Notes: generated by a model from the letters alone, not told the origin. Positions 21,674-50,939 are shown, counted from the stretch's first letter. The stretch: 64,000 bases of DNA from an uncultured Alphaproteobacteria bacterium (GCA_963763485.1 CAVXOW010000008.1:121464-185463), one strand, 5' to 3'. Program-made: numbers and translations.

Positions 21674-21706
21674 TTTGCCGGGACGATCAGGACCTCGACG
21701 AACCTT

Positions 21707-23101: not shown

Positions 23102-23104
23102 ATT

Positions 23105-23176: not shown

Positions 23177-23228
23177 TGGCTTGCCGAAAACTGATTGACG
23201 GAACCCGCAACTGCATTTGGTTCGCAAC

Positions 23229-23265
23229 AAGGCTCTTCGCGCCCGCGCGGGGAGCCTTGTTTATT
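23229..23265 (+). terminator. hairpin AAGGCTC..GAGCCTT followed by GTTTATT
   Basis: Stem-loop AAGGCTCTTCGCGCCCGCGCGGGGAGCCTT with a T-rich tail, between paralogues 5 and 6. Confidence 0.4.
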
Positions 23266-23266
23266 C

Positions 23267-23283
23267 TGCGTCACGCTGACGCA
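23267..23283. promoter_or_regulatory. perfect inverted repeat TGCGTCA-CGC-TGACGCA, candidate operator upstream of paralogue 6
   Basis: A 7-3-7 perfect palindrome 141 nt upstream of the ATG at 23424. It has no counterpart upstream of the other five paralogues. Confidence 0.3.
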
Positions 23284-23423
23284 TTTCATAACACCTGCGT
23301 TTTGCATCAGGGCGCCCTGAAAAAATGACGCTACTGCGCATGCGTTCTGCGGGGCAAAGCAGCGCCAAGGCGTGGTCACGAACGACCAGCCTCAACGATC
23401 ATTTGAAGCGAAGAAGGAAACTC

Positions 23424-33298: not shown

Positions 33299-33475
33299 GA
33301 CAGCCTCCTCGTGCTGAGTAACAGCCCGTCCAGCGGGCTGGACTCTGCCACAGATCGAGCCCCGCGCCGAGCCGCTTTCGCGCGAGATGCCCGGCGACGA
33401 TGTGTCAAGTTCGCGAAAAAAGGTATGATTGCGGGCGCCAACCGAACGCTGTCACGATAGTTGGGCGAGGTGACC

Positions 33476-34847
33476 ATGACCGATGCAAGCGCGAAGAACG
33501 ATGCAGCGCCAGGGCTGCGGCCGTACCTGCCGGCGACCTCAGGCTTTGCCAAGGGAGAAGGCTCGCCGCGCGATTTCCTCGAGCGGGCGATTGCCACGCT
33601 GGAAGCGTGGGAACCCAAAATTGGAGCGTTTGTTGCGCTCAATCTCGCAGCCGCGCGGGCCGACGCCGATCGCGCCACCGCGCGCTGGCGTTCGGGAAAA
33701 CCGCTGTCGCCGATCGACGGCATGCCGGTCGGCATCAAGGACATCATCGAGACAAACGACATGCCGACCGGCAACGGCTCGCCGCTGTTCGACGGCTACC
33801 GCGGCGAACGCGATGGCGCGAGTGTCGCAGCGCTGCGCGAGGCGGGCGCGGTGATCGTCGGCAAGACCGTGACCACCGAGTTCGCGTCCACCCAGCCGCG
33901 CGGCACCCGCAACCCGCATGACGTGACGCGCACGCCGGGCGGTTCGAGCAGCGGCTCGGCGGCGGCCGTTGCCGTCGGCGCCATCTGCGGCCGGCATCGG
34001 CACGCAGGTGCTGGGCTCGATCGTCCGGCCGTCGAGTTTCTGCGGCTGCTTCGGTTTCAAGCCGACGGTCGGCGCGCTCAATCGCGGCGGCAGCTATGAT
34101 GGGCTGTCGCAGAGCGTGCACGGGCCGATCGCTGCCAGCCTGCCCGAGGCCTGGATTGTCGCCTACGAGATCGCGCAGCGCGCCGGCGGCGACCCCGGCT
34201 TTCCCGGGCTGTACGGGCCGGCGACGCCGCCGGCGGCGGTCGCGGCCGACGAAGCTCGCGTTGCTCGAAACCGACGGCTGGGCGGTCGCAACGCCGGGCG
34301 CGAAACAGGCGCTCGCCGGCGCGATCGAAAAGCTGCGCGCAGTGCCGGAATCGCGATCGCGACACGGCACGACGATGCGAGAATAGCCGCGACCGAAGCC
34401 GCGATCACGGCCGCCCGCGAGCTCTCAACGCGGATCAACGCCTGGGAATGGCGCTGGCCAATCAACACCTATCGCGCCCGCGATGCCACGAAGCTCAGCA
34501 AGTCGACGCTTGAGCGCGGCGCGCAGGCCGAGGCGATGACGCTCGACGACTATCGGTTCGACATCGCCGATCGCGATCGGCGGCGCGCGATCCATTCGGC
34601 ATTGGCCGGAGAATTCGACGCCTGCGTTACGCTGTCGGCGACGGGTGCCGCTCCGGTCGGTCTCGACTCGACCGGCAACCCGGTGTTTGCCGCGCCGGGC
34701 TCGATGCTCGGCATCCCTGCGATCTCGCTGCCGGTGCTCGACGATGGCGGCCTGCCGCTCGGCCTGCAGCTGATGGGCTTTGCCCACCGCGATGCGAGGC
34801 TGTTTGCGACGGCTGCTGCGGTGCTGGAGATGCTTGAGCGCGTGTGA
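33476..34847 (+). pseudogene. amidase (amidase-signature family) interrupted by three frame changes
   Basis: The AS motif GGSSSGSAAAVAVGA in frame 2 continues as AAGIGTQVLGSIVRPSSFCGCFGFKPTVGAL in frame 0 (shift near 33980-33990). It then continues as RPTKLALLETDGWAVATPGAKQALAGAIEKLRA in frame 1 (shift near 34240-34250), and returns to frame 0 as GIAIATRHDDARIAATEAAI (shift near 34340-34350). Confidence 0.75.
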
Positions 34848-35798: not shown

Positions 35799-36209
35799 AT
35801 GCTCGAATACAATGTTGTCGCAAAACGCTCAGACTCCCACGGAAGTACGGCCCGATCCAAACAGGCCGAACTTGTGCTCGACACTGACGTGAATGGCAGG
35901 GCGGACGCCTTCAATCCTGCGGAACTGTTTCTGGCGGCGGTCGCCGCCTGCATGATCAAAGGAATCGAACGGGTCGCGCCGATGCTCCACTTCAAGTTCA
36001 GCGGCGTCGAGGTCCGCCTTCATGGCGTTCGTCAAGATAGCCCGCCTTTCATGTCTTCCGTGACCTATGACCTTATCGTCGACACGGATGAAGACGATCG
36101 GCGCCTCGATCTCCTGCATCAGAATGTTCGTAAGTATGGAACGATCTCGAACACGGTAGCCGCAGCAACGAAGCTTGAGGGCAAGATTGTGCGGGCCGGA
36201 ACTGTTTGA
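35799..36209 (+). CDS. OsmC/Ohr family protein
   Basis: The ORF 35757..36209 is trimmed to the ATG at 35799, after GGAGAG. It has the OsmC-like core FNPAELFLAAVAACMIKG. The second conserved Cys appears replaced (RKYGTISNT). Confidence 0.7.
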   Translation: MLEYNVVAKRSDSHGSTARSKQAELVLDTDVNGRADAFNPAELFLAAVAACMIKGIERVAPMLHFKFSGVEVRLHGVRQDSPPFMSSVTYDLIVDTDEDDRRLDLLHQNVRKYGTISNTVAAATKLEGKIVRAGTV

Positions 36210-36233
36210 ACGCGAACCGTTCGAGATGATTCG

Positions 36234-37136
36234 ATGGCGGATCACCATGACGACAAGCAAAGCCTGAACGTTGGACCCGCTTTCCTGTGGGCCGCGGTTC
36301 TGAACACGGCTTATGTCGTGGTCGAAGCTTTATTTGGCTTTTGGGTCGGATCACTAGCTTTGCTGGCTGACGCGGCGCACAACGTCACGGACGTATTCGG
36401 CCTTTTGATCGCGTGGGGAGCATTTGTTGTCGCGCGACGCCGACCGACAGAGTGGCACACCTACGGCCTCGGTCGTGCAACGATCCTGGCTGCTCTCGCC
36501 AATGGAATTGCCTTACTGATTGGAGTAGGCGCGCTTGTTCGCGAAGCGACTGAGCGCATTGCTGCTCCTGAGCCAGTCGCAGCAACAACTGTTCTTTGGG
36601 TCGCAGCAATCGGAATTGCGGTTAAATCGGGGACCGCGCTCCTGTTCGTGAAAGAACGCTCCCACGATATCAATATCGGAGGCGCATTCCTGCACATGGC
36701 AGCGGACGCAGCGGTTTCGGCAGGCGTTGTCGTATCCGCAATCGTGATTTTCCTCACCGGCTGGACGGTTGCCGATCCGGTCGTCGCGATTCTCGTAAGT
36801 GCCGCGATTGGTTGGTCGGCTTTCGGGCTCTCCAAATCGGCGCTCCACTTGAGCCTCGATGGAACTCCGGAAGGCATCAATTTGTCGGCGATCGGGGCGT
36901 CGCTGCGCGCACTTCCCGGCGTCACCGACTTACACGATCTTCACATCTGGGCGCTCAGCACGACATCTAATGCGCTGACGGTTCATCTGGTGATGCCTGA
37001 TGGATGTCCGAGCGATGCCTTTCTCGAACAGACTGCACACGATCTAGAAACACGGTTCCGCGTCGCTCACGTAACGCTCCAAGTGGAGCGAGGAACGGAG
37101 GAGAAATGTCAGTTGGCAGATCCTGCTCGACCGTAA
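36234..37136 (+). CDS. cation diffusion facilitator family transporter (CzcD-like)
   Basis: 300 aa with CDF motifs (SLALLADAAHNVTDV, GAFLHMAADAAVSAGV, DLHDLHIWALS). Confidence 0.85.
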   Translation: MADHHDDKQSLNVGPAFLWAAVLNTAYVVVEALFGFWVGSLALLADAAHNVTDVFGLLIAWGAFVVARRRPTEWHTYGLGRATILAALANGIALLIGVGALVREATERIAAPEPVAATTVLWVAAIGIAVKSGTALLFVKERSHDINIGGAFLHMAADAAVSAGVVVSAIVIFLTGWTVADPVVAILVSAAIGWSAFGLSKSALHLSLDGTPEGINLSAIGASLRALPGVTDLHDLHIWALSTTSNALTVHLVMPDGCPSDAFLEQTAHDLETRFRVAHVTLQVERGTEEKCQLADPARP

Positions 37137-37137
37137 A

Positions 37138-37151
37138 TTGATGCAGATCAG
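37138..37151. promoter_or_regulatory. FNR-type box TTGATGCAGATCAG (9/10 match to TTGAT-N4-ATCAA)
   Basis: It ends 61 nt upstream of the thiolase ATG (37212), immediately after the CDF stop. Confidence 0.45.
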
Positions 37152-37211
37152 CGCCCACTGCGCTGACATTTGATTACTGTGCTGCAGCAGCAAAGTCCGA
37201 GGAGATCGACT

Positions 37212-38399
37212 ATGGCTAATCGCGAAGTTGTGATCTGTTCACCGGTGCGCACAGCGATCGGTACTTATGGCGGCACGCTCAAGGACATGCCGGCGGTCGA
37301 TCTCGGAGCTGTTACGGTTCGCGCAACTCTTGAGCGCGCGAAACTTTCGCCGGGCGATATCGGTACGGTCGTCATGGGCAATGTGATCCAGGCCGGCAAC
37401 AAGATGAATCCGGCGCGCCAGGCCGCGATTCACGGCGGTGTGCCGGTCGATATTCCGGCGATGACAGTCAACCGCGTCTGCGGCTCGGGCGCGCAGGCAA
37501 TTGCGAGCGCAGCGCAGGAAGTGATGCTCGGCTTCATCGATAGCGCGGTCGCCGGAGGAATGGAGAACATGGACCGCGCTCCGTATCTCATGAGTTCTGG
37601 GCGCTGGGGCTACCGCATGGGCGATGCCCAGGTGTTCGATTCAATGCTGATGGACGGCCTCAACGATGCCTTCTCCGGTCAACATTCCGGATGGCACACG
37701 GAGGATCTCGCGAGCTCGCATCAGATTACGCGCGAGCAGCAGGACCGCTGGGCAGAGCGCTCGCAGAAGCGGTTTTCGGCTGCTCAGTCCGCCGGCAAGT
37801 TTGCGGCGGAAATCACGTCAGTCGAAGTCGCGTCGCGTAAGGGCCCGGCAAAATTCGAGAAGGACGAACATAATCGGCCGGACGCCACACTGGAGAGCCT
37901 GTCGAAGCTAAAACCGGCCTTTCGCAAGGATGGCACCATCACCGCTGGCAACGCGCCGGGTCTCAACAGTGGAGCGGCAGCCATGATCGTCGCCGATCGC
38001 GCTTGGGCTGACCACAAGGGCCTCGTGCCGATGGCGCGGCTCGTAGCCTACGGTATCGGCGCCGTCGAGCCGGGTATGTTCGGTTTGGGTCCGGTACCAG
38101 CGGTGAAGCAGGCGCTCGATCGCGCCGGATGGAAAACCTCAGATATTGAACGCATCGAGATCAACGAAGCCTTCGCAGCAATCGCAATTGCGGTCACAAC
38201 GGACCTTGGTTTGGGTCCCGAAATCGTCAACGTCGAAGGCGGTGCCATCGCGCATGGTCACCCGATCGGCGCCAGCGGCGCGGTGCTCACGACCCGACTG
38301 CTGCATTCGATGCAACGCGATGGAATCAAAAAGGGGATCGTCACGCTCTGCATCGGCGGTGGCCAGGGAATTGCACTCGCACTCGAAGCCGTGAATTGA
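37212..38399 (+). CDS. acetyl-CoA C-acetyltransferase (thiolase II)
   Basis: The ORF 37170..38399 is trimmed to the ATG at 37212, after GAGGAG. It has thiolase motifs (VNRVCGSGAQAI, NEAFAA, GGAIAHGHPIGASG, CIGGGQGIA). Confidence 0.9.
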   Translation: MANREVVICSPVRTAIGTYGGTLKDMPAVDLGAVTVRATLERAKLSPGDIGTVVMGNVIQAGNKMNPARQAAIHGGVPVDIPAMTVNRVCGSGAQAIASAAQEVMLGFIDSAVAGGMENMDRAPYLMSSGRWGYRMGDAQVFDSMLMDGLNDAFSGQHSGWHTEDLASSHQITREQQDRWAERSQKRFSAAQSAGKFAAEITSVEVASRKGPAKFEKDEHNRPDATLESLSKLKPAFRKDGTITAGNAPGLNSGAAAMIVADRAWADHKGLVPMARLVAYGIGAVEPGMFGLGPVPAVKQALDRAGWKTSDIERIEINEAFAAIAIAVTTDLGLGPEIVNVEGGAIAHGHPIGASGAVLTTRLLHSMQRDGIKKGIVTLCIGGGQGIALALEAVN

Positions 38400-38491
38400 G
38401 CTGGTGTTGGAAATCCAGCGGATGTTTGCATGATCGCTCCGACGCGGCCGTTGCGGAGAAGAGATTCTAGGGGTTTCAACAGGGTGCGAAT

Positions 38492-38845
38492 ATGAGCAAG
38501 GATTTTGCGGGCATCGCCCACGATGTGATCACCGGTGTCGGGCTGCTACAGAAGAGCGCGCCCGACACGATGAAGGCTTTTGGTGCTCTTTCCATTGCCG
38601 CGACGGCCGCCAAAGCGATCGACACAAAGACGAAGGAGTTGATGGCACTGGCTATTGGCATCGCGGTCCACTGTGATGGCTGCGTCGCCTACCACACCAA
38701 AATGGCTCATCAGCACGGAGCCACGCGCGAGGAGGTCGCCGAGACGGTTGCTCTTGCCGTGTACATGGGTGGTGGACCAGCGGCAGTGTACGGAGGCGAT
38801 GCTTTGCGCGCCTTCGATCAGTTTGCCGGCTCAAAGCCGCAATAA
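38492..38845 (+). CDS. carboxymuconolactone decarboxylase family protein (AhpD-like)
   Basis: 117 aa with the AhpD-type CxxC motif (IAVHCDGCVAYH). Confidence 0.8.
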   Translation: MSKDFAGIAHDVITGVGLLQKSAPDTMKAFGALSIAATAAKAIDTKTKELMALAIGIAVHCDGCVAYHTKMAHQHGATREEVAETVALAVYMGGGPAAVYGGDALRAFDQFAGSKPQ

Positions 38846-38918
38846 ATCGCCGAGCAAGATGCGCAGCCGGTGCCCGTAAGGTCGATGATGAGAGACTGTA
38901 ATGCAGCGGGAGAAGCCA

Positions 38919-39125
38919 ATGGCAATATCAGGAGGATGCGCATTGACCATCCTTCTCACAGATGAGCATCTGCGCAAAATCATCGAGTATCATCTTCTGA
39001 AGGAGGATGAGATAAGCGATCCGGTCAAGCTCAGTCGTGTGGCGCAAAAGTTGTTGGACGCTACCTTGGGGCTTCCGGACCGGGCGTGGCATGACTGGGA
39101 TGAGTGGGGGAAGGGGCTTACATGA
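38919..39125 (+). CDS. small acidic hypothetical protein
   Basis: The ORF 38901..39125 is trimmed to the ATG at 38919, after GGGAGA. I recognise no family. Coding status is uncertain. Confidence 0.3.
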   Translation: MAISGGCALTILLTDEHLRKIIEYHLLKEDEISDPVKLSRVAQKLLDATLGLPDRAWHDWDEWGKGLT

Positions 39126-39537
39126 CCTCTTCGACGAGTGAGGCGCGAGATTGATAACGAGATGCCAAGTATCTTTTGCAACAGCACCTGCCGCGGAACT
39201 AGGTCTCCTTGGCGAGGGCGTGCCCAACGAAACAATCCTCGACGCCAATGATCAAGCATCCCATACTTGTGAGCCGCCCGATCGTTTGCACACCCAAGGG
39301 CGTGCGGCTATGCCGTCCAAGCGAAGTGGTCCTTGATCTACTCGACGGTTTGCTGCCTGGGCCGTTCCAAAAGGAAGACGGACAATTGCTTATCGATCGC
39401 GAGGGGCGTCGTGTTGGCTGATCCATCGGGTGTTAGAGGTCACTTGATCGAAGGGCTGCGAAGTCGTTCGCAATTCTGCGACGCCACGGTCACAGTTTGA
39501 ACTCCTGAACGCCGTCTCGTTCTTTTCGCCGGATCCA

Positions 39538-41337
39538 ATGGACATCATGAACGCTTCGGTCAATTCGCTCGGTTTTCTCACCGATCCAACTCGCTTCATA
39601 TTTTTCACTGGCAAAGGTGGCGTCGGTAAAACGTCGATTGCTTGCGCCGTTGCTTTGGCGCTTGCCGACAGGGGCAAGTCTGTTCTGATAGTCAGCACCG
39701 ATCCGGCATCCAATCTCGATGAGATACTGGATGTGCCCTTGGGCAATCTGCCGGTCGCCGTTCCCGGCACCGAGCATCTCGAGGTCCTCAATATTGATCC
39801 GACCGCCGCCGCCGATGCCTATCGTTCCCGGGTGCTGGCCCAGATGGGAACGGATGCGAGCGATCAAGAGCGGAAAACTGTTCAGGAACAATTGTCGGGC
39901 GCCTGCACGACGGAGATCGCTGCCTTCGACGAGTTTGCCGGCCACTTGGCCAATAATGACGCCCCTTACGATCATGTCGTGTTCGATACTGCACCAACCG
40001 GGCATACGCTTCGTCTCCTGAGCTTGCCCAAGGCCTGGAGCGGCTTTCTCGAGGTCAATGAAGAAGGCGCTTCGTGTTTGGGACCGCATTCTGGCCTCAA
40101 GATGCAGGAAGCTCGCTTCCGGATTGCTTTGGCCGCGCTCAGCGATCCGGCATCGACGACCATTATCCTCGTTGCTCGACCCGAGGTCGGAGCTCTCACC
40201 GAGGCGGCGCGAACCTCGGCGGAGTTGCAAACGCTTGGCCTCTCTAATCAGCGGCTGGTTGTGAACGGCGTATTCAGGGCCAGCGATCGATCGGACGTGA
40301 CAGCAGCGTCGCTCGAAGATCTGGGACAGCGGGCGCTCTCGGAGCTTCCGGCAGTACTCCAGGTGCTCCCGCGCGACGATATCCCGCTTAGGCCTTTCGA
40401 GTTGCTGGGCGTCAATGCATTGCGGTCTTTGCTCGCACCTGAAAGCGCAACTGCTACGCCAACACCAACTCCTCCGGCCCTGCCGTTGGTGGACGACCTT
40501 CCCGGCCTCGACAACCTAATCGACGGTCTGGCGGCAGATGGCAGGGGCCTGATCATGGTCATGGGGAAAGGCGGCGTGGGCAAGACCACGATCGCAGCCA
40601 CTATCGCCGTCGGCTTGGTGCAGCGAGGCCATACGGTTCACCTCAGCACGACAGATCCGGCGGCCCATCTTTCGATCACGCTTACGGAGGCGGTTCCCGG
40701 TTTGCGGGTCGACCGAATTGATCCAAAAGTGGAGACGGAACGCTATGTCGAGAAGGTAATGGCGGAGCGCGGCCGCAAACTTGATGCACAGGGACGAGCT
40801 CTGCTGCGTGAGGATTTGCGCTCTCCATGCACCGAAGAAATCGCCGTTTTTCATGCATTTTCCCGAATCGTGCAGGAAGCGCGAAGCGCATTCGTGGTAC
40901 TGGATACCGCGCCGACAGGTCATACTCTGCTTCTGATGGATGCCGCCGGCGCCTATCACCGGCAGGTGACCCGGCAAATGGAGAACGCGGCGGTTGGTCG
41001 GATCATCACCCCGCTGATGCATCTACAGGATCCGGCCTACACGCACGTCGTGCTGGTGACGTTGGCAGAAGCGACACCTGTGTCGCAGGCGAATGCCCTG
41101 CAAGAGGACCTGCGGCGCGCGCGTATCGAGCCCTATGCCTGGGTCATCAACAAGAGCTTGCTTGCCGCCAGAACGCGTGATCCGCTGCTTACGCAGCGAT
41201 TGCTGGGTGAGCAAAAGCAAATCGATCGCGTGCGCGGATCGATGGCGAAGAATGTGTTCTTTCTGCCCTGGCAGGCGAACCCGCCCGTTGGCTTGCTCGC
41301 GCTCCAAGAATTGGCACGTGGCCGACGTTCCGCATAG
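39538..41337 (+). CDS. arsA: arsenite/antimonite-stimulated ATPase ArsA (two-domain)
   Basis: 599 aa with two P-loops (GKGGVGKTS, GKGGVGKTT). It is collinear with plasmid R773 ArsA as I recall it, including the metalloid-binding Cys contexts SGACTTE, GASCLGP and RSPCTEE and both DTAPTGHT signal-transduction motifs. Confidence 0.9.
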   Translation: MDIMNASVNSLGFLTDPTRFIFFTGKGGVGKTSIACAVALALADRGKSVLIVSTDPASNLDEILDVPLGNLPVAVPGTEHLEVLNIDPTAAADAYRSRVLAQMGTDASDQERKTVQEQLSGACTTEIAAFDEFAGHLANNDAPYDHVVFDTAPTGHTLRLLSLPKAWSGFLEVNEEGASCLGPHSGLKMQEARFRIALAALSDPASTTIILVARPEVGALTEAARTSAELQTLGLSNQRLVVNGVFRASDRSDVTAASLEDLGQRALSELPAVLQVLPRDDIPLRPFELLGVNALRSLLAPESATATPTPTPPALPLVDDLPGLDNLIDGLAADGRGLIMVMGKGGVGKTTIAATIAVGLVQRGHTVHLSTTDPAAHLSITLTEAVPGLRVDRIDPKVETERYVEKVMAERGRKLDAQGRALLREDLRSPCTEEIAVFHAFSRIVQEARSAFVVLDTAPTGHTLLLMDAAGAYHRQVTRQMENAAVGRIITPLMHLQDPAYTHVVLVTLAEATPVSQANALQEDLRRARIEPYAWVINKSLLAARTRDPLLTQRLLGEQKQIDRVRGSMAKNVFFLPWQANPPVGLLALQELARGRRSA

Positions 41338-41446: not shown

Positions 41447-42310
41447 CTAGTGCGACAGCAGCACCGGCACGACCTGGCGTGACAGGATGCTTCGCGTGGC
41501 GCCGCCGAGCACGAATTCGCGCAGGCGCGAATGGCCGTAGGCGCCCATCACCAGGAGATCGGCCTGCACCGACGTGACGTAGGATTCCAGCACCTCGCCG
41601 ACCGGGCGGCCTGCGGACTTGACGTCTTCGAGGACCACAGTGGCACCGTGCTCGGCCAGGTGCCTTGCAAGCTCCTCGCCGGAGCGCTTGCTGTCGATCG
41701 TCTTCTCGCCGCTCACCGTCACGACGCTGACCTGCTTCGCCTTGATCAGCAGCGGCAAGGCATCGGCCACCGCCCGCGCCGCCGTCCGCGAAAAATCCCA
41801 GGCGACCACGACATGATCCAGCGCGAACGGACGGTCGCTCAGCGACTGCGCCGGCATCAACAGCGTCGGGCGGCCCGAGCCGAAGATGATCGCTTCCGCG
41901 AACCAGTACTCCTGAAATGAGTGTTCCGGCGTGCCGATAATGGTCAGGTCGCGCAGCTTCGCGTAGTCGACGAACAGGGCGGCCAGTTCATTCGTAAAGC
42001 AGGTGTCGAAAATCCGCTCGCGAAAGACGCCGCGCGCGGTCGCCTTCTGCTCGAAGGTCGCGAGCAGCTCTTCGGCCTTGAGGCGGCTCTTCCGTGCCTC
42101 GGCGTTGGCCAATGCGTGGATGTCGAACATGGCGTCGCCCAACGGGCTGCCGGGCATGGCCACCCGCACCTCGCAGGCGATCGCCGAGAGCTTCGCGTCG
42201 ATCGCCGCGGCAAAATCGATCGCCTTGTCGATGACGACGCTGAACGAGGGCTCGGGATAACTTGTCAGCGCGAGAAGAATGTCTTTGATCGCGGCATCTT
42301 TAAGAGCCAT
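41447..42310 (-). CDS. universal stress protein (tandem USP domains)
   Basis: The ORF 41447..42415 is trimmed to the ATG at 42310..42308. Two USP-like halves end in DLLVMGAYGHSRLREFVLGGATRSILSRQVVPVLLSH. Confidence 0.8.
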   Translation of the reverse strand: MALKDAAIKDILLALTSYPEPSFSVVIDKAIDFAAAIDAKLSAIACEVRVAMPGSPLGDAMFDIHALANAEARKSRLKAEELLATFEQKATARGVFRERIFDTCFTNELAALFVDYAKLRDLTIIGTPEHSFQEYWFAEAIIFGSGRPTLLMPAQSLSDRPFALDHVVVAWDFSRTAARAVADALPLLIKAKQVSVVTVSGEKTIDSKRSGEELARHLAEHGATVVLEDVKSAGRPVGEVLESYVTSVQADLLVMGAYGHSRLREFVLGGATRSILSRQVVPVLLSH

Positions 42311-42370
42311 GGAAAGCCGTCCAGTCTGTTCAAGGTGGAAGCATGCTGCCTGACGCGGCTTCCATAACCT

Positions 42371-42384
42371 TTGATCAAGAGCAA
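42371..42384. promoter_or_regulatory. FixK2/FNR-type box TTGATCAAGAGCAA (9/10 to TTGAT-N4-ATCAA)
   Basis: It lies in the divergent usp/MBL intergenic region, 61 nt from the usp ATG and 109 nt from the MBL start. Confidence 0.5.
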
Positions 42385-42492
42385 AGCCGGGGAGCCGGCC
42401 GTTGACGCACGTCAAGCTCCCTGAGGTACAATCGGCCTAAAGTGGCGCCAAACCGCGGGCTTGCATCGGGCCGCGCCAAGGTGTGAGGGAAC

Positions 42493-43859
42493 GTGGCACT
42501 TCAACTGGGTTTTCTGGGCGGCACCGGGACGGTCACCGGCTCGAAATACGCACTGCAGAACGGCAGGGATGTTGCCCTCGTCGACTGCGGGCTGTTTCAG
42601 GGCTTCAAGACACTGCGTTTGAAAAACTGGGCGCCGCTGCCGATCGACCCGCGTAAAATTTCCTCGGTCGTTCTCACCCACGCCCATCTCGATCATTCCG
42701 GCTATCTGCCGCTCCTGGTGCGCAACGGATTTCGCGGCCCCATCTTCGCGTCGCGACCGACGCTCGAACTGTGCCGCATCCTGCTGCCCAACTCCGGCTT
42801 CCTGCAGGAGAAGGACGCCGAGTTCGCCAACCGTCACGGCTTCTCGAAACACAAGCCGGCGCTGCCGCTCTACACGGCGGACGACGCGAGACGCAGCCTC
42901 GACTATTTCAAGACGGTATCGTTCGACGACAGCCATGCGCTGACGCGCTCGCTGTCGTTTCGCATGCATCGCGCCGGGCACATCCTTGGCGCCGCTTCGC
43001 TGCAGATCGAAGCCGCTGGCACGACGATCGTGTTCTCCGGCGATCTCGGCCGCTACAACGACCCGACCATGGTCGATCCCGTCGGCTTCGATCGCGCCGA
43101 CTATCTGGTCGTGGAATCCACCTATGGCGATCGGCATCATTCGGACGTCGATCCGGAACAGGCGATTGGCGACGTCGTCGAGAGGACGATCGGGCGCGGC
43201 GGCACGGTGGTGATGCCGGCGTTCGCGGTCGGCCGGACCCAGAGCCTGCTGTTCCATCTCGCGCAGCTCAAGGACAAGGGACGGCTCGCCAACGTGCCCA
43301 GTCTTCCTCGACAGCCCGATGGCAGAAGACGCCAGCGACATCTTCTGCGATGATGTCGGCGAGCACAGGCTGTCGATGAGCGCCTGCCGCCGCGCCTGCG
43401 GCGTCGCGCGCTTTGTCCGCAGCGTCGACGAGTTCGAAGGCCCTCATGACCAATCCGATGCCGAAGGTGATCATCTCGGCGAGCGGCATGGCGACCGGCG
43501 GCCGCGTGCTGCATCACCTGAAGCACTACGCGCCCGACCCGCGCAACACGATCCTGTTCGCCGGCTTCCAGGCCGGCGGTACGCGGGGCGCGTCCATGGT
43601 CGGCGGCGCCGACAGTATCAAGATTCACGGCGCCTACGTGCCGGTGCGCGCCGAGGTGAAAAATCTCGACATGCTGTCGGGCCACGCCGACGCCGGCGAA
43701 ATCCTGCGCTGGCTGAAAGGCTTCAAATCGCCGCCAAGGATGACCTTCGTCACCCACGGCGAACCGGCGGCGTCCGACGCGCTGCGCCGGCGCATCGAGG
43801 AGGAGCTCAAGTGGCCCTGCACCGTGCCGGAGCACGGCCAACAGGTCGAACTGGCATGA
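42493..43859 (+). pseudogene. MBL-fold metallo-hydrolase of the beta-CASP (RNA-metabolising) type, two +1 frame changes
   Basis: HxHxDH motif THAHLDHSG. Frame 1 reads to ..RLANVP. Frame 2 gives VFLDSPMAEDASDIFCDDVGEHRLS (shift at GTGCCCAGTC, about 43297-43301). Frame 0 gives SKALMTNPMPKVIISASGMATGGRVLHHLK..LSGHAD (shift at GAGTTCG, about 43430-43433). Confidence 0.75.
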
Positions 43860-45397
43860 GCGACGACGGACCAGCCGGCGCACTGCCGCCGCACGACGCG
43901 GCGAACACCGTTCGCGCGCGGCGGCTCGGCATCGACACGCAATACGAAGCCATCATCTTCATGCACAAGGATTGCCGGGTCTGCCGCTCGGAAGGCTTTG
44001 CCGCGCTGACCCGTGTCCTGCTGACAGCCAATGGCCGCAGAGTCATCGCGACGCTTTACCAGATCACGAGCCCGCTGGTCCGTCCTGACGAGGCCATCCT
44101 GTCCGAGTCGGCCTGGAAGCGGCTCGCCCTGAAGGACGGCGAGCACATCACCATCGGCCATCCGCCGCAGCTCGATTCACTGAGCCATCTGCGCAGCCGC
44201 ATCTACGGCAACGACTTAAGCGAGCCCGCCTTCCATGCCATCATCGGCGACATCGTCGACGGCCAGTATTCCGACATCCACCTGTCGTCGTTCCTGACCG
44301 CCTGCGCCTCGCCGCCGCTGAACCACCAGGAGGTGCTGGCGCTTACGCACGCAATGGTCGAGGCCGGCGATCGCCTGAAATGGCCGGCCGGCACCGTCGC
44401 CGACAAGCACAGCGTCGGCGGCCTGCCCGGCAACCGCACGACGCCGATCATCGTCCCGATCGTCGCAGCGCTCGGCATCATGATGCCGAAGACCTCGTCG
44501 CGCGCGATCACTTCGCCTGCCGGCACCGCCGACACCATGGAGACCATGGCGCCGGTCGATCTCGACAACGATGCGATCCGGCGCGTGGTCGAGCGCGAAG
44601 CCGGCTGCATCGTCTGGGGCGGTGCGATCAATCTCAGTCCGGCCGACGACATTTTGATCCGGGTCGAGCGCGCGCTCGATATCGACAGCGAAGGACAGAT
44701 GATCGCCTCGGTGCTGTCGAAGAAGATCGCCGCCGGCTCGACCCACGTCGTGCTCGATCTGCCCGTCGGCCCGACCGCGAAGGTGCGCACCGCGCGCGCT
44801 GCGCAGCAGCTCGCGGACGGACTGACCAATGTCGGCGCCGAGTTCGGGCTGAAGACAAGGATTGTGCCGGGCGACGGGCTGCAGCCGATCGGCCGCGGCA
44901 TCGGTCCCGCGCTCGAAGCCCGCGACGTGCTTCAGGTACTGCGCGGCGAGGCCACCGCGCCGCAGGATTTGCGCCAGCGCGCGCTCGCGCTGGCCGCCGC
45001 GCTGCTGGAGCTCACCGAGATCTGCCCAGCGGGCCGCGGCGAAGCGATCGCGGCCGATGTGCTCGACAGCGGACGCGCCTGGCGCAAGTTCCAGCGCATC
45101 TGCGAGGCCCAGGGCGGGATGCGGACACCGCCGGTCTCGCGCCAGCAGCGTCCCGTGCTCGCCGAGCGGCCGGGCAAGGTGCGCGCGATCGACAACCGCC
45201 GCATTGCGCGGCTCGCCAAGCTTGCCGGCGCACCGGACGACAAGGCCGCCGGCATCGACATGCATGTGCGTGTCGGCGACCTGGTCGCGAGCGGCCAGCC
45301 ACTGTGCACGGTCCACGCCGATTCGCCGGGCGAACTCGCCTATGCGTTCGACTTCGCCGAGGCCAACCGCGACATCATTGCGGTCGGCGAGCCATGA
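43856..45397 (+). CDS. thymidine phosphorylase family protein, long type with N-terminal extension (AMP-phosphorylase-like)
   Basis: The ORF 43319..45397 is trimmed to the ATG at 43856, which overlaps the MBL stop (ATGA). It is 513 aa with the glycosyl-transferase family 3 core (DKHSVGGLPGNRTTPIIVPIVAA, KTSSRAITSPAGTADTME, SVLSKKIAAG) after a ~90-aa N-terminal domain. Confidence 0.85.
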   Translation: MSDDGPAGALPPHDAANTVRARRLGIDTQYEAIIFMHKDCRVCRSEGFAALTRVLLTANGRRVIATLYQITSPLVRPDEAILSESAWKRLALKDGEHITIGHPPQLDSLSHLRSRIYGNDLSEPAFHAIIGDIVDGQYSDIHLSSFLTACASPPLNHQEVLALTHAMVEAGDRLKWPAGTVADKHSVGGLPGNRTTPIIVPIVAALGIMMPKTSSRAITSPAGTADTMETMAPVDLDNDAIRRVVEREAGCIVWGGAINLSPADDILIRVERALDIDSEGQMIASVLSKKIAAGSTHVVLDLPVGPTAKVRTARAAQQLADGLTNVGAEFGLKTRIVPGDGLQPIGRGIGPALEARDVLQVLRGEATAPQDLRQRALALAAALLELTEICPAGRGEAIAADVLDSGRAWRKFQRICEAQGGMRTPPVSRQQRPVLAERPGKVRAIDNRRIARLAKLAGAPDDKAAGIDMHVRVGDLVASGQPLCTVHADSPGELAYAFDFAEANRDIIAVGEP

Positions 45398-46296
45398 CAG
45401 CGCCCATGCTGATTGCGATGCCCGGCAACGAAGCCATGGCGCAATCGATCGCACGCATCCTCGGCGCCGATGTGGGCCAACTCGAGCTGCGCGCATTTCC
45501 CGACGGCGAGGCCTACCTGCGTTTCGCCACCGAGCTTAAGGATCGCCGAATCGCGCTGGTCTGCACGCTCGATCACCCCGATGCGAAGATGCTGCCGCTA
45601 CTGTTTGCGGCCGCTGCCGCGCGCGACCTCGGCGCCAGTCAGGTCGGTCTGGTCGCGCCCTATCTGGCCTATATGCGGCAAGACCGCCGCTTCAAGCCGG
45701 GCGAAGCCGTGACCTCACGCGAGGTCGCGCGACTGTTGTCGGGCGCGTTCGACTGGCTGGTCACCGTCGATCCGCACCTGCATCGTTACACGTCGCTTGC
45801 CGAGATCTATCGCATCCCGACGCGCGTCGCCCATGCCGCCCCACTGGTATCGCAATGGATCAAGGCCAACGTACCGCAGGCGCTGGTGATCGGCCCCGAC
45901 GGCGAGAGCGAGCAGTGGGTTTCCGCCGTCGCCAACGATGCCGGCGCGCCGTTCACCGTGCTTCAGAAGGTCCGCAATGGCGATCGCGACGTCGAGATCA
46001 CCATGCGCGATCTCGGGCAACTCGGCGAGCGCACGCCGGTGTTCGTCGATGATATCATCTCATCAGGCCGCACCATGGCCGAGGCGGTTCGGCTGGTGGC
46101 CGCCCGCACCCCGCAGCGTCCCGTCTGCATCGCCCTGCACGGGCTGTTCGCCGACAACTCCGACCGGCTGCTGTCGGCCTCGGGCGCGCGCATCGTCACG
46201 TCCAACACGGTCACCCACCCGAGCAACGCCCTCGACGTAGCGCCACTGCTGGCTGCAGGCGTTGGCGAACTTGCACAAGCACCGCCGCCCACGTAG
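45394..46296 (+). CDS. ribose-phosphate pyrophosphokinase-like protein
   Basis: The ORF 44380..46296 is trimmed to the ATG at 45394 (ATGA overlap). It carries Prs-like motifs (AFPDGE, APYLAYMRQDRRF, VDPHLH, VDDIISSGRTM). Confidence 0.8.
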   Translation: MTAPMLIAMPGNEAMAQSIARILGADVGQLELRAFPDGEAYLRFATELKDRRIALVCTLDHPDAKMLPLLFAAAAARDLGASQVGLVAPYLAYMRQDRRFKPGEAVTSREVARLLSGAFDWLVTVDPHLHRYTSLAEIYRIPTRVAHAAPLVSQWIKANVPQALVIGPDGESEQWVSAVANDAGAPFTVLQKVRNGDRDVEITMRDLGQLGERTPVFVDDIISSGRTMAEAVRLVAARTPQRPVCIALHGLFADNSDRLLSASGARIVTSNTVTHPSNALDVAPLLAAGVGELAQAPPPT

Positions 46297-46322
46297 ACCG
46301 TCGCGGGGACGTGGCGGGCGGA

Positions 46323-46982
46323 ATGAAACTGATCATCTTCGACTTCGATGGCACGCTGGCGGACAGTCGCAACCTGATCATCGAGGCGCACCGGCGGGTG
46401 TTTTCCCAATTCGGACTGCCGGTGCCGCCCCCGGAAGCGAGCCTCGCGCTGATCGGGCGCTCGCTCGAGCTAGTGCTCGCCGAACTCGCCGGACCCGATG
46501 CGCCGGTCGCGGCGATGACGACGGCCTATCAGCCGGTCGTGAAGCAGCTGCGCGCCGATCCCGCATTTGCCGACCTGCCCTTTGCCGGCGTCAATGAGCT
46601 GCTCCTCGAGCTGGGGGCACGGAAAGACCTTCGTCTCGGCATCGCCACCGGGCATATCTCGAGCGCGATCGAGCCGGCGCTTGCGACATTCGGCTGGCGC
46701 GAGCTGTTCTGCACCGTACAGAGCGCCGACAAAGCGCCGTCGAAGCCGCACCCCGGCATGATCCTGCAGGCGCTCGCCGAGGCCGACACCGCAGCCGACG
46801 ATGCCGTCATGATCGGCGACACCGCCTTCGACATGGAGATGGCGCGCGCGGCCGGTGTTGCCGCGGTCGGCGTCGCCTGGGGTTATCATCCGCGCGATCG
46901 GCTTATCGCGGCAGGTGCGGACGGGGTCGCCGAGACGATCGAGGATTTGCGCACGCGGCTGCTGGACGGAGGCGATCGCTAA
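46323..46982 (+). CDS. HAD family hydrolase (phosphoglycolate phosphatase-like)
   Basis: Motif I is IIFDFDGTLADS and motif IV is MIGDTAFDMEMARAAG. The start is ATG 46323 or GTG 46311. Confidence 0.8.
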   Translation: MKLIIFDFDGTLADSRNLIIEAHRRVFSQFGLPVPPPEASLALIGRSLELVLAELAGPDAPVAAMTTAYQPVVKQLRADPAFADLPFAGVNELLLELGARKDLRLGIATGHISSAIEPALATFGWRELFCTVQSADKAPSKPHPGMILQALAEADTAADDAVMIGDTAFDMEMARAAGVAAVGVAWGYHPRDRLIAAGADGVAETIEDLRTRLLDGGDR

Positions 46983-47525: not shown

Positions 47526-47658
47526 CGGCTCGGAACCGCTCCGAAGTTGCAACAGAACAAGCGAGGGCTTTTCCGGTTTGAAATTCCCACCCGGATTGGG
47601 CACAAACCATCCTGCGCGGCCAGTGCGCCATCTTTCATTCAAAGCGGAACGCGCAAAT

Positions 47659-48427
47659 ATGCGACGTCAATTCGCGGTGCTGTTGGGAACACTCGCCCTG
47701 TTGGCGCCTGAGGTGGCGCTGGCGCAGGTTCCGAGCGAGCTGCTGCCACGGAACCTGTCGCCATGGGGCATGTTCCTCAACGCCGACATCGTGGTCAAAG
47801 CCGTGATGGTGGGGCTTGCCCTCGCCTCGCTGGTGACCTGGACGGTGTGGCTCACGAAAACCATCGAACTGCGGCGCGAGACCACGCGCGCGAGACGGCG
47901 ACTTCGCGTGATCGAGCAGGGCGGCGCGCTGCGCGACGCCGTCCGCGCCTGCGGCAGCGACACCGACGCCGTCGCCCAGCTCATCCTGTCGACGGCACGT
48001 GAGAGCGAGCTGTCGGGCGGCACGTTCGACGCGGATTTCAAGGAGCGGGTGGCGCTGCGGCTCGAGCGGGTCGAGGCGGCGATGCAGCGCCAGATTTCGC
48101 GCGGCATCGGCGTGCTGGCGACGATCGGCGCCACGGCGCCGTTCGTCGGCCTGTTCGGCACGGTGTGGGGCATCATGAATTCGTTCATCGGCATCTCGGA
48201 ATCCCACACCACCAACCTCGCCGTGGTCGCGCCCGGCATTGCCGAGGCGCTGCTCGCCACCGCCATGGGCCTGGTCGCCGCGATCCCCGCGGTCGTGATC
48301 TACAACCATCTGGTCCGCGTCATCGGCGGCTACCGCGCGTTGCTCGGCGACGCCTCGGCGCAGCTGCTCCTGATGATCAGCCGCGGACGCACCGACCGCG
48401 CGCCGGTCGGCGCGCGCCGCGGAGTAG
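47659..48427 (+). CDS. exbB: ExbB (MotA/TolQ/ExbB proton channel); no in-frame stop, reads through into exbD
   Basis: The ORF 47578..48960 is trimmed to the ATG at 47659 (signal-peptide type ExbB). The channel motif is [42 protein letters not shown]. The expected stop TAG at 48425..48427 is only in the +1 frame. Confidence 0.75.
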
Positions 48428-48432
48428 CTGTC

Positions 48433-48869
48433 ATGGCTGTGCGGCTCGGCTCGCGTTCCGGCGGCGACGACCTCGAAGTCCAGCACGAGATCAACGTCAC
48501 GCCGTTCATCGACGTCATCCTGGTGCTCCTGATCATCTTCATGGTGGCGGCGCCGCTCGCGACCGTCGACATCGGCGTCAACCTGCCGTCGAGCACCGCG
48601 CCGCGAACAGCCGCGGCCGGACAAGCCGGTATTCGTGACCGTCAAGCCCGACGGCACCGTCGCGGTCGGCGAGACGATGGTGACGCGCGAGACGCTGTCG
48701 CCGGCGCGCTCGATACCGCCACCAACAATCACAAGGACGAGGTGATCTTTGTCCGCGGCGACAAGGAGCTGGCCTACGGCGACCTGATCGCAGGTCATGA
48801 ACCTTTGCGCGACGCCGGCTACCTCAAGCTCGCGCTGGTCGGGCTGGAAGCGGCCCGGCAAAGCCATGA
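48433..48869 (+). pseudogene. exbD: ExbD/TolR with at least two internal frame changes
   Basis: The N-terminus [32 protein letters not shown] is in frame 1. The middle part [29 protein letters not shown] is in frame 2 (about 48600-48700). It returns to frame 1 as [27 protein letters not shown]. The likely natural stop TGA at 48867..48869 is in frame 0. Confidence 0.7.
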
Positions 48870-49620
48870 CAGCGCTGGCGCTGCATTTTCCGGAACGGCG
48901 CGGGATCACGCGCTGGATGCTCGCCGCCGTGGCGATCGTCATCGCACATGGCGATCGTGATCGGCGCGCTGGCGCTGTGGTATACGCGCGCACCGCCGGA
49001 GGAGAATCTCATTCCAGCGATCGTGGTGAGCATCGTACCGGCGGCGCCACTGTCTCCGATGGAAAACGATCAGCCAGTCGCGGCCGAGCAAACAACGCAT
49101 ATCGATCCGACGCCCGAGCCGTCCAAAGTCGAGACGAAGGTCGAGCCGCCGCCGGAAGAGATCAAACCTCCACCGCCACGCCCGGCGGAGATCGCTCTTC
49201 CGAAGCCAGAGCCAAAGCCGGTCGAAAGAAAATCCGTCGAAAAGAGGCCTGTCGAAAAGAGGCGCGTCGAAAAATTGTCTCCGCCGCAGGAAGCGCACGA
49301 GAGGGCTGCGGCGCGCGAAGCCTCGCGACAATCGAGCGTCGCGGCTTCGAACAACTACAATTCACTGGTCATTGGGCAGCTCGAACGCGCCAAGGGATAC
49401 CCGCCGGGCGGCGCCGACTGGAAAAACCTCCGTGGCGTTTACGGTCAGCAGTGCGGGCAGCCTCTTGGATGTCCATGTCACGAAGTCATCGGGCAATTCA
49501 ATTCTCGACCAGGCAGCGCTCGACATCGTGCGGCGTGCATCGCCCTTTCCGCATTTCCCGCCGGAGATGACTCAACCGCAGACATCGTTTTCCTGGGAGC
49601 GATACTTCGCGGCGCGCTGA
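48866..49620 (+). pseudogene. tonB: TonB energy transducer with two frame changes
   Basis: The N-terminus [28 protein letters not shown] is in frame 2. The TM and Pro-rich spacer ([38 protein letters not shown]) are in frame 0 from about 48950. The C-terminal domain (GKTSVAFTVSSAGSLLDVHVTKSSGNSILDQAALDIVRRASPFPHFP) is in frame 1 from about 49410. Confidence 0.7.
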
Positions 49621-50939
49621 GGCGCTAGGCGATTTGCCCGCTCGAACTGGCGCAGCAGGCGGTTGCCGCGCTCGGCCGCGGCATCGAGCGCCTGCTGCGC
49701 CGTCTTCTTGCCGGAAAAGGCCTGCTCGAGCTCGTCCTCAATGGCGGCGCGGATCAGCACGAACGAGCCGAGCCGGAGGCCTCTCGAATTGTCGGTCGGC
49801 GGCTTGTAGGTGATCTGCTCGATCGAAATCGCGGTGCCGGGATTGCGATCGTAGAAGCCTTGCGCGCGGCGTCAGTTCGAAGGCGGCGCGCGTGATCGGA
49901 AGATAGCCGGTTTTCTGGTGCCACCAGGCCTGCACGTCCGGCCGCGACAGGAAGGCGAAGAAACGCGCGACGCCTTTGTATTCGTCTGCCGGCCGGTCGC
50001 GCAGCACCCACAGCGTGGCGCCGCCGATGATCGTGTTCTGCGGCGCGCCGGGAACGTCGGGCCAGTACGGCATCATGCCGTAGCCGACCTGAACTTGCCT
50101 TGGCGAGGATGTCGGCGCGCGTCGCCGACGAGCCGAGGAAGATGCCGCACTCGCCGCGCTGGAAGCGCGGCTCGGCCTTGGTGTCGCGGCCGCTGTAGTC
50201 GAACAGCTTGGTCTTCTGCCACTCGGCGAGCTTGCCGATGTGGCGGACCTCGAGCGGATTGTTGATGGTGAGCAACGCATCGAGCCCGCCGAGGCCGTTG
50301 GCTGCGCGTCGCGACCGGCAGTTGTGAAGCGCGGAGAAATTCTCGACGTTGACCCAGGACGGCCAGTGCGTGGTGAAGCCGCAGGCCGCGCCTGACGCGC
50401 GCAGCGCTGCGGCCGCGACGCCGACCTCGGGCCAGGTTTTCGGCGGAACGTCCGGGTTGAGGCCGGCGGCGCGAAACAGCTGCTTGTTGTAATAGAGGAT
50501 CGGGGTCGACGAGTTGAACGGAAACGACAGCATGTTGCCGGCGACGTCGGTGTAATAGCCGGTGACCGCGGGCAGATAGGCGCTCGGGATCGAACGTCTC
50601 CTTCGCATCGCGCATCAACTCGTACACCGGATAGATCGCGCCCTTCGCCGCCATCATCGTCGCGGTCGCGATCTCGTTGACCTGGACGATGGCCGGCTGG
50701 GTCTGCGAGCGGAAGGCGAAGATCGCCGCCGTCGTAGTCTCGGTGTAGTTGCCCTTGTAGACCGGGACGACGCGGTAGTCCGACTGGGTCGCGTTGAAGT
50801 CGGATGCGAGCTTTTCGAGCTGGCGGCCAAGCTCGCCCGGCATCGCGTGCCACCAGATCACGTCCGTCGTGGCCAACGCCGGCGCCGCATGCATCAGCGC
50901 CATGAACACGGCCGCGACCTTCAGCGTGAAATTCCGCAT
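49572..50939 (-). pseudogene. extracellular solute-binding protein family 1 (UgpB-like), at least four frame changes
   Basis: The N-terminus [33 protein letters not shown].. (ORF 50073..50939) continues in other frames. The successive segments are [80 protein letters not shown] and [52 protein letters not shown] possible lost stop lies at about 49626. No cognate permease or ATPase genes are adjacent. Confidence 0.65.

Follow-up and report, generated by a model that had tools for sequence, protein, structure and literature searches.

Genes and boxes at the locus

The DNA analyzed here is a 64,000-nucleotide stretch from an uncultured alphaproteobacterium (GCA_963763485.1, CAVXOW010000008.1:121464-185463), referred to throughout as the window. 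Its G+C content is ~64%, and the nearest relatives of its proteins come from Xanthobacteraceae, Bradyrhizobium-like organisms, and soil metagenomes. The cluster under study, at 41447-46982, consists of a universal stress protein (USP) gene and, transcribed away from it, a row of four genes coding for a beta-CASP ribonuclease, a long-type phosphorylase, a ribose-phosphate diphosphokinase-like (Prs-like) protein, and a HAD phosphatase:

41447-42310, minus strand: USP, 287 aa; open reading frame (ORF) with ATG start, Pfam Usp
Between the USP and beta-CASP genes: divergent intergenic region, 182 bp
42371-42384: variant of the FixK2-type box, TTGATCAAGAGCAA (TTGA-N6-GCAA), its center 67.5 nt upstream of the USP ATG
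42402-42415: perfect FNR/FixK palindrome, TTGACGCACGTCAA, its center 84.5 nt upstream of the beta-CASP GTG
42493-43859, plus strand: beta-CASP metallo-beta-lactamase (MBL) ribonuclease gene with two +1 frameshifts, 454 aa when corrected; Lactamase_B, Beta-Casp, RMMBL
43856-45397, plus strand: long-type NP-II phosphorylase, 513 aa, AMP/NMP-phosphorylase-like (NMP, nucleoside monophosphate); NF003338, TIGR02645
45394-46296, plus strand: Prs-like protein, 300 aa, PRK07199 subfamily; NF005537
46323-46982, plus strand (GTG at 46311 possible): HAD-IA phosphatase, 219 aa from ATG; Pfam HAD_2

ATGA start/stop overlaps join the beta-CASP gene to the phosphorylase gene (GGCATGAGC) and the latter to the Prs-like gene (GCCATGACA), and the ATG of the HAD gene follows 26 nt after the Prs-like gene. 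Both overlaps had been pointed out in an earlier note on this DNA, as had the divergent USP gene and the FNR/FixK-type box between it and the operon; all are present in the sequence, the box as TTGACGCACGTCAA.

A conserved and mobile gene trio

To survey the linkage of these genes, an alignment of varied long-type phosphorylases served as the query for a scan that took in a single genome for each species. The 80 loci examined are the best 80 of that scan (53-70% identity) rather than a random sample, and they span Alpha-, Beta-, and Gammaproteobacteria, Legionella, Bacteroidota, Acidobacteriota, Planctomycetota, and Myxococcota. The window proteins were searched against these loci, with the neighborhood defined as ±7 kb of the phosphorylase and direct downstream placement as a gap of ≤150 nt. 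At 71 of the 80 loci, a Prs-like gene is found no more than 7 kb from the phosphorylase, and at 53 of the 75 with room it follows directly downstream; the corresponding figures for beta-CASP are 55 of 80 within 7 kb and 48 of 72 with room directly upstream. The full trio is present at 45 of the 68 loci with room on both sides. The HAD gene, on the other hand, was found at 1/80 loci and the USP gene at 5/80. The conserved unit is therefore the trio of beta-CASP ribonuclease, long-type phosphorylase, and Prs-like protein, and this unit is widespread and horizontally mobile. The co-occurrence test suggested in the earlier note thus has a divided outcome, linkage within the trio going far beyond chance while that of the HAD gene does not, and the inclusion of HAD and USP as members of the module had to be given up. 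Among plasmid records, 127 carry the phosphorylase and 93 the Prs-like protein; the two are distributed alike over the taxa, and in annotation they often overlap.

Beyond the trio itself, about 20% of the loci carry a divergent phosphoketolase-like gene and some of them also acetate kinase. The phosphoketolase-family (XFP-like) protein, of ~790 aa, occurs at 17/80 loci, often in an operon of the order Prs-XFP-betaCASP-phosphorylase, and acetate kinase at 9/80. The XFP-like gene sits between the Prs-like and beta-CASP genes at seven loci (L043, L049, L060, L019, L055, L058, and L082, at ~3200-5600 in each), and on the Agrobacterium plasmid pAtCFBP6623a (L098, 5227-7596) it is annotated as "xylulose 5-phosphate 3-epimerase." Against phosphoketolase models these proteins score 130-154 bits, with cut-offs of 777-1518. 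They may form a clade of their own, with a substrate perhaps related to the module. The recurrence of such phosphoketolase-like and acetate kinase neighbors hints that some genomes, at least, use the liberated ribose as fuel for ATP instead of salvaging it.

A phosphorylase akin to archaeal AMP phosphorylases

The window phosphorylase belongs to NF003338 (683.9 bits, cut-off 434) and TIGR02645 (587.5 bits, cut-off 434.6), the long-type families that go by the name of putative "thymidine phosphorylase"; the source names agree with the earlier remark that this is the family's only annotation. Its NP-II core (Glycos_trans_3N, Glycos_transf_3, and PYNP_C) exceeds all Pfam cut-offs. By contrast, every DeoA or PyNP model stays under its cut-off: TIGR02643 (167.0 vs. 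570.7 bits), TIGR02644 (210.8 vs. 409), NF004490 (216.4 vs. 269), and NF004747 (168.1 vs. 559). The AMP_phos equivalog TIGR03327 (EC 2.4.2.57) aligns with the protein at full length, residues 20-509 corresponding to model positions 3-492 of 500, with the N-terminal domain included. As the alignment begins at model position 3, the ~90-aa N-terminal extension is held in common with archaeal AMP phosphorylases, as first supposed. The score, 482.3 bits, falls short of the cut-off of 535, and for this reason the protein is not filed as an AMP phosphorylase equivalog.

The best match in the Protein Data Bank is the AMP phosphorylase of Thermococcus kodakarensis (Tk-AMPpase, 4GA4-6), with which the protein has in common the motifs GGxPGN(R/K)T, PKTSSRAITSxAGTAD, and WGGAxNLxPADD. 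In the alignment, the window protein reads GGLPGNRT, PKTSSRAITSPAGTAD, and WGGAINLSPADD, as in the archaeal enzyme, where Escherichia coli DeoA has GGV-GDVT, PMISGRGLGHTGGTLD, and IGQTSSLAPADK. A neighbor-joining tree without support values, built from 50%-identity cluster representatives labeled by fusion type, places DeoA as a distant outgroup to all long-type sequences. The phylogeny proposed earlier accordingly sets the long type apart from DeoA, but the window phosphorylase falls in a bacterial clade distinct from that of Tk-AMPpase. The ratio of nonsynonymous to synonymous substitutions (dN/dS) of its gene is 0.08-0.11. Taken as a whole, the sequence comparisons support a long, AMP-phosphorylase-like type, far more than a DeoA-like one.

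Tk-AMPpase, whose N-terminal domain measures 84 aa, was itself first misannotated as a thymidine phosphorylase (PMC8376864). It converts all natural NMPs to base and ribose-1,5-bisphosphate (PMC8376864; PMC9700705). A literature search found no paper on the biochemistry of the bacterial long-type phosphorylase. As a side observation, long-type forms of 900-1000 aa contain inteins; in some (P0153, P0179, P0204, and P0212; 912-1017 aa), an intein with a LAGLIDADG endonuclease lies in the catalytic domain.

Fusions and the Prs-like partner

The strongest computational evidence on the substrate of the family comes from fusion proteins. Among the 50%-identity representatives, ~10 long-type phosphorylases bear an N-terminal PhnN fusion (TIGR02322, 178-186 bits, cut-off 156). 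In four shorter fusions PhnN replaces the N-domain of the phosphorylase, and one protein is a phosphorylase fused to the PRK07199 Prs subfamily. The PhnN fusions make up their own, sister clade in the tree. From these fusions, the family would handle ribose-1,5-bisphosphate and be tied metabolically to phosphoribosyl pyrophosphate (PRPP). In two independent contexts, the PhnN-phosphorylase fusion stands directly after a gene of the QRPTase family, which uses PRPP. This arrangement suggests a cycle in which PRPP serves as a handle on a pyridine-type acid and is regenerated via ribose-1,5-bisphosphate. One of these contexts is near a TRAP transporter and the other includes UbiD, amidohydrolase, and acyl-CoA genes; the PhnN-fusion loci are L085/L086 (6133-9064), L094 (6100-8776), and L095 (4152-6828).

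The Prs-like protein scores 397.6 bits with NF005537/PRK07199 (cut-off 322), and its nearest solved structures are the archaeal PRPP synthases 1U9Y (140 bits) and 4TWB (131 bits). The RQD, DPH, K-x-R loop, and DDIxSxxxT motifs are kept across 60 family members, and DPHLHR is a family-specific motif of the subfamily. The dN/dS of its gene is 0.12-0.14.

The beta-CASP ribonuclease gene and its frameshifts

The beta-CASP gene, whose disruption the earlier note missed, reads in three frames in the window: frame 1 to ~43300, frame 2 to ~43433, and frame 3 to the stop, with a stop in the first frame at 43351-43353. The frame changes result from single-base insertions near 43300 and 43433. Three related contigs (L001, L087, and L088; ~87% nucleotide identity) have an intact 454-aa gene, and the window shows the same two 1-nt insertions against each of them. 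Only after removal of the two bases does the protein present the Lactamase_B, Beta-Casp, and RMMBL architecture of Pfam; its nearest solved structure is then the Thermus ribonuclease TTHA0252 (253 bits). The corrected gene is under normal purifying selection (dN/dS 0.11-0.15), so that the disruption either arose very recently or stems from a sequencing error. Should the frameshifts be real, this genome may have lost the RNA-degradation step; the phosphorylase, Prs-like, and HAD genes are intact.

A role in defense was also considered, given a match to a Cas14-like beta-CASP model in NCBIfam, and was rejected, the match reaching 333 bits with a cut-off of 800. PADLOC defense models gave no match for the four main proteins, the HAD protein scoring only 14.5 bits.

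FixK-type boxes and probable low-oxygen control

The intergenic region contains two boxes, their centers 31 bp apart, and both conform to TTGA-N6-TCAA or TTGA-N6-GCAA at promoter distance. The palindrome TTGACGCACGTCAA is the only exact TTGAYN4RTCAA in the 64 kb, where 0.09 would be expected, and 8 of 100 shuffles contained at least one. The half-site form of TTGATCAAGAGCAA, TTGA-N6-GCAA, also occurs among several FixK2 boxes of Bradyrhizobium diazoefficiens (PMC9104804). In the related contig L001, the intergenic region has diverged except for three islands, namely the two boxes (17/17 nt for that at 42371-42384; 17/19 nt for the palindrome, kept as TTGATACACGTCAA) and the ribosome-binding site with the start codon. 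Because these alone are kept in an otherwise diverged region, the phylogenetic footprint makes a good case for a function of both boxes.

Boxes at similar distances upstream of the module are also found at L002, L003 (Bradyrhizobium sp. USDA 313), L004, and L009. In Rhodoplanes, the genes run USP-betaCASP-phosphorylase-Prs behind a TTGA-N6-TCAA box, next to CBS, host-attachment, and Crp/FNR genes. Over the whole survey, 34 perfect boxes fall in 23/80 loci, as compared with a Markov expectation of 3.4 ± 1.8 and with 0-8 for 11 composition-matched control palindromes. At only 3/78 loci, however, does a perfect box lie 300 nt or less from the first gene recognized. An FNR box directly upstream in all genomes was therefore discarded as a general rule, the enrichment being at the level of the neighborhood and lineage-specific.

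Expression data exist for B. diazoefficiens. Under microoxia, transcripts of bll3115 (MBL), bll3116 (Prs), and bll3117 (phosphorylase) rise 15.4-, 7.7-, and 5.1-fold, respectively, and their products also rise at the protein level (PMC6515984). In a fixK2 mutant, bll3117 and bll3115 fall 6.6- and 30.6-fold; a FixK2 box is located at -74, and bll3117-bll3116-bll3115 is a predicted operon (PMC9104804). The three genes are named in tables only, with no function given (PMC6515984; PMC9104804), and the literature search found no further paper on the trio beyond these two. The FixK2 regulon of this organism also includes a phosphoketolase-acetate kinase operon, bll2518-bll2517 (PMC9104804).

As judged from the boxes and their conservation, the low-oxygen wiring is probably real in this lineage. 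Given the rarity of boxes close to the module and the plasmid copies that reside in metal islands without one, it is lineage-specific and not universal to the module. Oxygen regulation, as the earlier note proposed it, thus stands for the homologous B. diazoefficiens operon, where it is published, and is backed here by the footprint; the plasmid copies have no such boxes. The parallel that the note drew with dormancy loci did not hold for the Burkholderia lxa locus: the text of that paper mentions no comparable phosphorylase, MBL, or HAD genes.

Plasmid and metal-resistance contexts

On conjugative or mobilizable plasmids of Sphingobium, Agrobacterium, Phenylobacterium, Acidovorax, and Caulobacter (L097-L101), the trio resides in copper/heavy-metal islands. 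Its neighbors there include CueR, P-type ATPase, CopCD, multicopper oxidase, ICMT, DUF2933, DUF305, LemA/TPM, and PPK2, and on the Acidovorax plasmid type II GAPDH, PPK2, and a hydroxyacid dehydrogenase lie beside it. No TTGA-N6-TCAA box was found in these five plasmid loci (~91 kb in total). Near-identical copies of the plasmid trio are spread across sphingomonad genera. In the survey at large, P-type ATPases appear at 20-23 of the 80 loci, about half of them of heavy-metal type. A beta-CASP and phosphorylase pair without Prs was seen beside CopC/CopD in Bradyrhizobium sp. USDA 313 (L003, 12010-17533); an N-type ATPase operon (AtpR, ATPase_gene1) is nearby, and this 17.5-kb locus holds seven TTGA-N6-TCAA boxes.

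USP and HAD as local additions

The USP start was taken as the ATG of MALKDAA, since an alternative 322-aa ORF from a TTG would extend through the promoter. Pfam Usp matches residues 165-285 (E=1.3e-11), and the N-terminal half has no Pfam match at E≤0.01. A USP gene is thus present as the earlier note had it; its description as tandem is drawn from the length of the protein, only the C-terminal half matching Pfam Usp. In Rhodoplanes, the USP gene is upstream of the operon in the same direction. The HAD protein matches Pfam HAD_2 (1.2e-32), and the NCBIfam equivalogs (PpaX, phosphoglycolate phosphatase) all stay under cut-off. L087, the nearest relative, has the gene, whereas L001 retains no more of it than the last 14 codons (TVEDLRRRLTDGNR*), the rest having been deleted. 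L001 has neither USP nor HAD, yet both FixK-type boxes are kept (L001 400-620 and 4395-4470).

Proposed function and its alternatives

On balance, and with moderate confidence, the cluster is read here as a FixK/FNR-wired copy of a trio that recycles RNA and NMPs. A TTHA0252-type beta-CASP ribonuclease would, to go by its family, degrade RNA to 5'-nucleotides. The phosphorylase, as its sequence, motifs, and fusions indicate, would split 5'-NMPs with inorganic phosphate into free base and ribose-1,5-bisphosphate, and the archaeal-type Prs-like enzyme would connect the ribose-phosphate pool with PRPP. The two FixK-type boxes would drive both the operon and the divergent USP gene in this lineage, so that expression would set in once oxygen runs short and growth has come to a halt. 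RNA-derived nucleotides would then be recycled, giving either PRPP and bases for salvage or ribose for energy.

Several points weigh against this reading. The survey drew on the best matches, perfect boxes seldom lie close to the module and are missing from the five plasmid loci, the ribonuclease gene of the window lacks an uninterrupted reading frame, and the phosphorylase scores below the AMP_phos cut-off and sits in a clade apart from Tk-AMPpase. Furthermore, ribose-1,5-bisphosphate is not known to be a Prs substrate, ribose-5-phosphate being the substrate of PRPP synthase, and neither the window nor any surveyed locus was found to contain PhnN, ribose-1,5-bisphosphate isomerase, or RuBisCO. 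Together, these last two points leave a gap between the phosphorylase and Prs steps. Nor does PhnN occur next to phosphorylases of the Prs-associated clade in the surveyed loci. Ribose-1,5-bisphosphate isomerase and RuBisCO families are not among the recurrent neighbors, a crude motif test detected no RuBisCO or IF-2B-type motifs in six-frame translations of the window and 83 loci (L001-L083), and the co-occurrence of this isomerase with type III RuBisCO, as in the archaeal pentose bisphosphate pathway, was accordingly not seen in the window or the loci. The gap might be bridged in one of three ways: a phosphatase could first make ribose-5-phosphate, which the local HAD protein could do here; the Prs-like enzyme could run in reverse from PRPP; or it could have a novel activity on ribose-1,5-bisphosphate. 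As the missing 1-phosphatase of a conserved pathway the HAD protein was rejected, occurring as it does at 1/80 loci, although locally the role is possible. Of the chain put forward in the earlier note, from RNA through NMP phosphorolysis to PRPP, the link to PRPP has gained from the PhnN and Prs fusions, whereas the last step retains this gap.

A catabolic alternative, though unlikely, is a bacterial "NMP shunt" by which the ribose of RNA, and possibly its glycosyl-phosphate energy, would yield ATP when respiration stops. The Prs-like enzyme would act on ribose-1,5-bisphosphate or PRPP to give ribose-5-phosphate, either by PRPP + AMP -> ribose-5-phosphate + ATP or by ribose-1,5-bisphosphate + AMP -> ribose-5-phosphate + ADP, the latter amounting to a Prs-type beta-phosphate attack with ADP in place of ATP; the pentose phosphate would then pass through a phosphoketolase-like enzyme to acetate kinase. 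The phosphoketolase-like and acetate kinase neighbors described above, the frequent placement of the former inside the operon, the bll2518-bll2517 operon in the FixK2 regulon, and the enzymes beside the trio on the Acidovorax plasmid all fit such a route, as does the fact that the archaeal pathway to which the homologous phosphorylase belongs is catabolic (PMC9700705). Yet neither phosphoketolase nor acetate kinase is near the cluster in the window, 80% of the loci are without them, the XFP-like proteins score far below the phosphoketolase cut-offs, and no reverse or ADP-type activity is on record for the Prs-like subfamily, to which these reactions are only ascribed. Less likely again is the bolder version, a RuBisCO-independent nucleotide shunt with the Prs-like protein as a new phosphotransferase and RNA as an anaerobic energy reserve of obligate aerobes. 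In respiratory arrest, ribonuclease and NMP phosphorylase would turn rRNA into bases and ribose-1,5-bisphosphate, the Prs-like enzyme would keep the energy of the 1-phosphate by one of the two reactions given, and in many genomes the divergent phosphoketolase-like enzyme and acetate kinase would extract ATP from the pentose.

The metal islands raise the prospect that the trio is stress-island cargo serving metal stress or phosphate/polyphosphate metabolism, its FixK wiring being a secondary, lineage-specific recruitment. The 127 plasmid records with the phosphorylase, many of them conjugative, the setting of the plasmid trio amid CueR, heavy-metal P-type ATPase, and CopCD without an FNR-type box, the P-type ATPases of the wider survey, and the arsA and CDF efflux genes adjoining the cluster in the window are all in its favor. 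But these are matters of context and supply no mechanism, FNR-type boxes are tenfold enriched at chromosomal copies, 12 of the 23 ATPase-containing loci have boxes too, and the expression data are for low oxygen only; the proposal is improbable. Somewhat more doubtful is adenylate housekeeping, in which the phosphorylase and Prs-like pair would remove AMP at low energy charge, including that released by PRPP synthase, as a phosphorolytic analogue of AMP nucleosidase, with the ribonuclease loosely connected. Prs releases AMP, on which AMP phosphorylase acts; one protein joins a Prs to a phosphorylase; and induction under energy-limiting microoxia is published. This proposal leaves the beta-CASP gene directly upstream (48/72 loci) unexplained, and likewise the PhnN fusions with their implied use of ribose-1,5-bisphosphate; combined with adenine salvage, as reasoned here, the cycle would be futile. 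Finally, the annotation itself would have the enzyme be a thymidine/uridine phosphorylase for pyrimidine nucleoside salvage, with unrelated neighbors. The database name "thymidine phosphorylase (family protein)" and the three Pfam domains common with DeoA agree with this, but the DeoA/PyNP models reach just 167-216 bits with cut-offs of 269-571, the active-site motifs are unlike those of DeoA, which is a distant outgroup in the tree, and the gene linkage is kept and fusions exist, so that the annotated function is very improbable.

Recycling of RNA and NMPs, the preferred reading, is of interest beyond this locus. The long-type family is present in very many bacterial genomes and on more than 100 plasmids, and is among the microoxia-induced proteins of a model rhizobium. 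If its members are NMP phosphorylases, ribose-1,5-bisphosphate would be a regular bacterial metabolite outside phosphonate catabolism. If the scheme holds, the trio would give aerobes that are not growing a defined means of taking RNA apart under oxygen or other stress, which matters for nodule bacteroids, for persistence, and for fitness islands on plasmids. Concrete candidate substrates can be read from the fusions and neighborhoods.

Surroundings of the cluster

Most of the window consists of clean long ORFs. Further disrupted genes are an amidase, exbB/exbD, tonB, and a solute-binding gene (33461-34844; 47578-49628; 49632-50939). The amidase is split across two frames (Pfam positions 3-142 and 144-444), exbB and exbD are fused into one ORF with dense small indels in exbD, tonB has one frame change, and the solute-binding gene has three, as compared with the intact genes of L001. 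Either the genes are decaying locally or the assembly is faulty at these places.

In a segment at 36000-41337, G+C dips to 0.58-0.59. Its genes include a CDF cation-efflux gene, a thiolase, a CMD-family gene, and a lone arsA that sits just upstream of the USP gene; this setting recalls the metal-resistance surroundings of the plasmid-borne trio. At 15991-24644, six tandem Peripla_BP_6 paralogues (branched-chain-amino-acid-type solute-binding) coincide with a lower G+C of 0.59-0.60 and a strong positive AT skew of +0.14 to +0.17. The gene for subunit I of cytochrome bd oxidase, a high-affinity oxidase, is at 60280-61626, 13 kb from the cluster, with an ORF at 61684-62688 after it; an exact-pattern search found no FNR-type box near this gene.

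Comparison with known systems

Each member of the trio has a characterized or solved relative. Like Thermus thermophilus TTHA0252, the corrected window ribonuclease has the Lactamase_B/Beta-Casp/RMMBL architecture and a size of ~430-450 aa. It differs in that the window copy carries two frameshifts, and the operon-linked subfamily would be a ribonuclease by homology. The Prs-like protein resembles 1U9Y (Methanocaldococcus jannaschii) and 4TWB (Sulfolobus solfataricus), which are PRPP synthases of the "class III" type, in length and catalytic motifs. Unlike these, it falls in the separate bacterial subfamily NF005537/PRK07199 and is an accessory copy that is linked to the phosphorylase, often plasmid-borne, and marked by DPHLHR. 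The known route from ribose-1,5-bisphosphate to PRPP is that of E. coli PhnN, a ribose-1,5-bisphosphate phosphokinase (PMC9700705) whose domains are fused to the sister-clade phosphorylases. Here the Prs-like protein takes the partner position, and any chemistry of its own on ribose-1,5-bisphosphate is conjecture.

As a whole, the cluster is closest to bll3117-bll3115 of B. diazoefficiens, which comprises the same three families, has a FixK2-type box upstream, and is expressed under microoxia in a FixK2-dependent manner. The gene order there is phosphorylase-Prs-MBL, whereas that of the window is MBL-phosphorylase-Prs-HAD with a divergent USP gene and a frameshifted MBL gene. That the operon is widespread and annotated, and that it responds to oxygen, was already known. 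New here is the argument that bacteria may possess a form of the archaeal NMP-phosphorylase pathway in which other partners take part. T. kodakarensis TK0352, the AMP/NMP phosphorylase, has the NP-II fold and the extra ~85-90-aa N-terminal domain of the window protein, and the two probably have their chemistry in common, NMP + inorganic phosphate -> base + ribose-1,5-bisphosphate. In the archaeal pentose bisphosphate pathway, or "NMP shunt," the partners of this enzyme are ribose-1,5-bisphosphate isomerase and type III RuBisCO; here they are a beta-CASP ribonuclease and a Prs-like protein, and in place of a part in archaeal central metabolism, the module appears under FNR/FixK regulation in aerobes.

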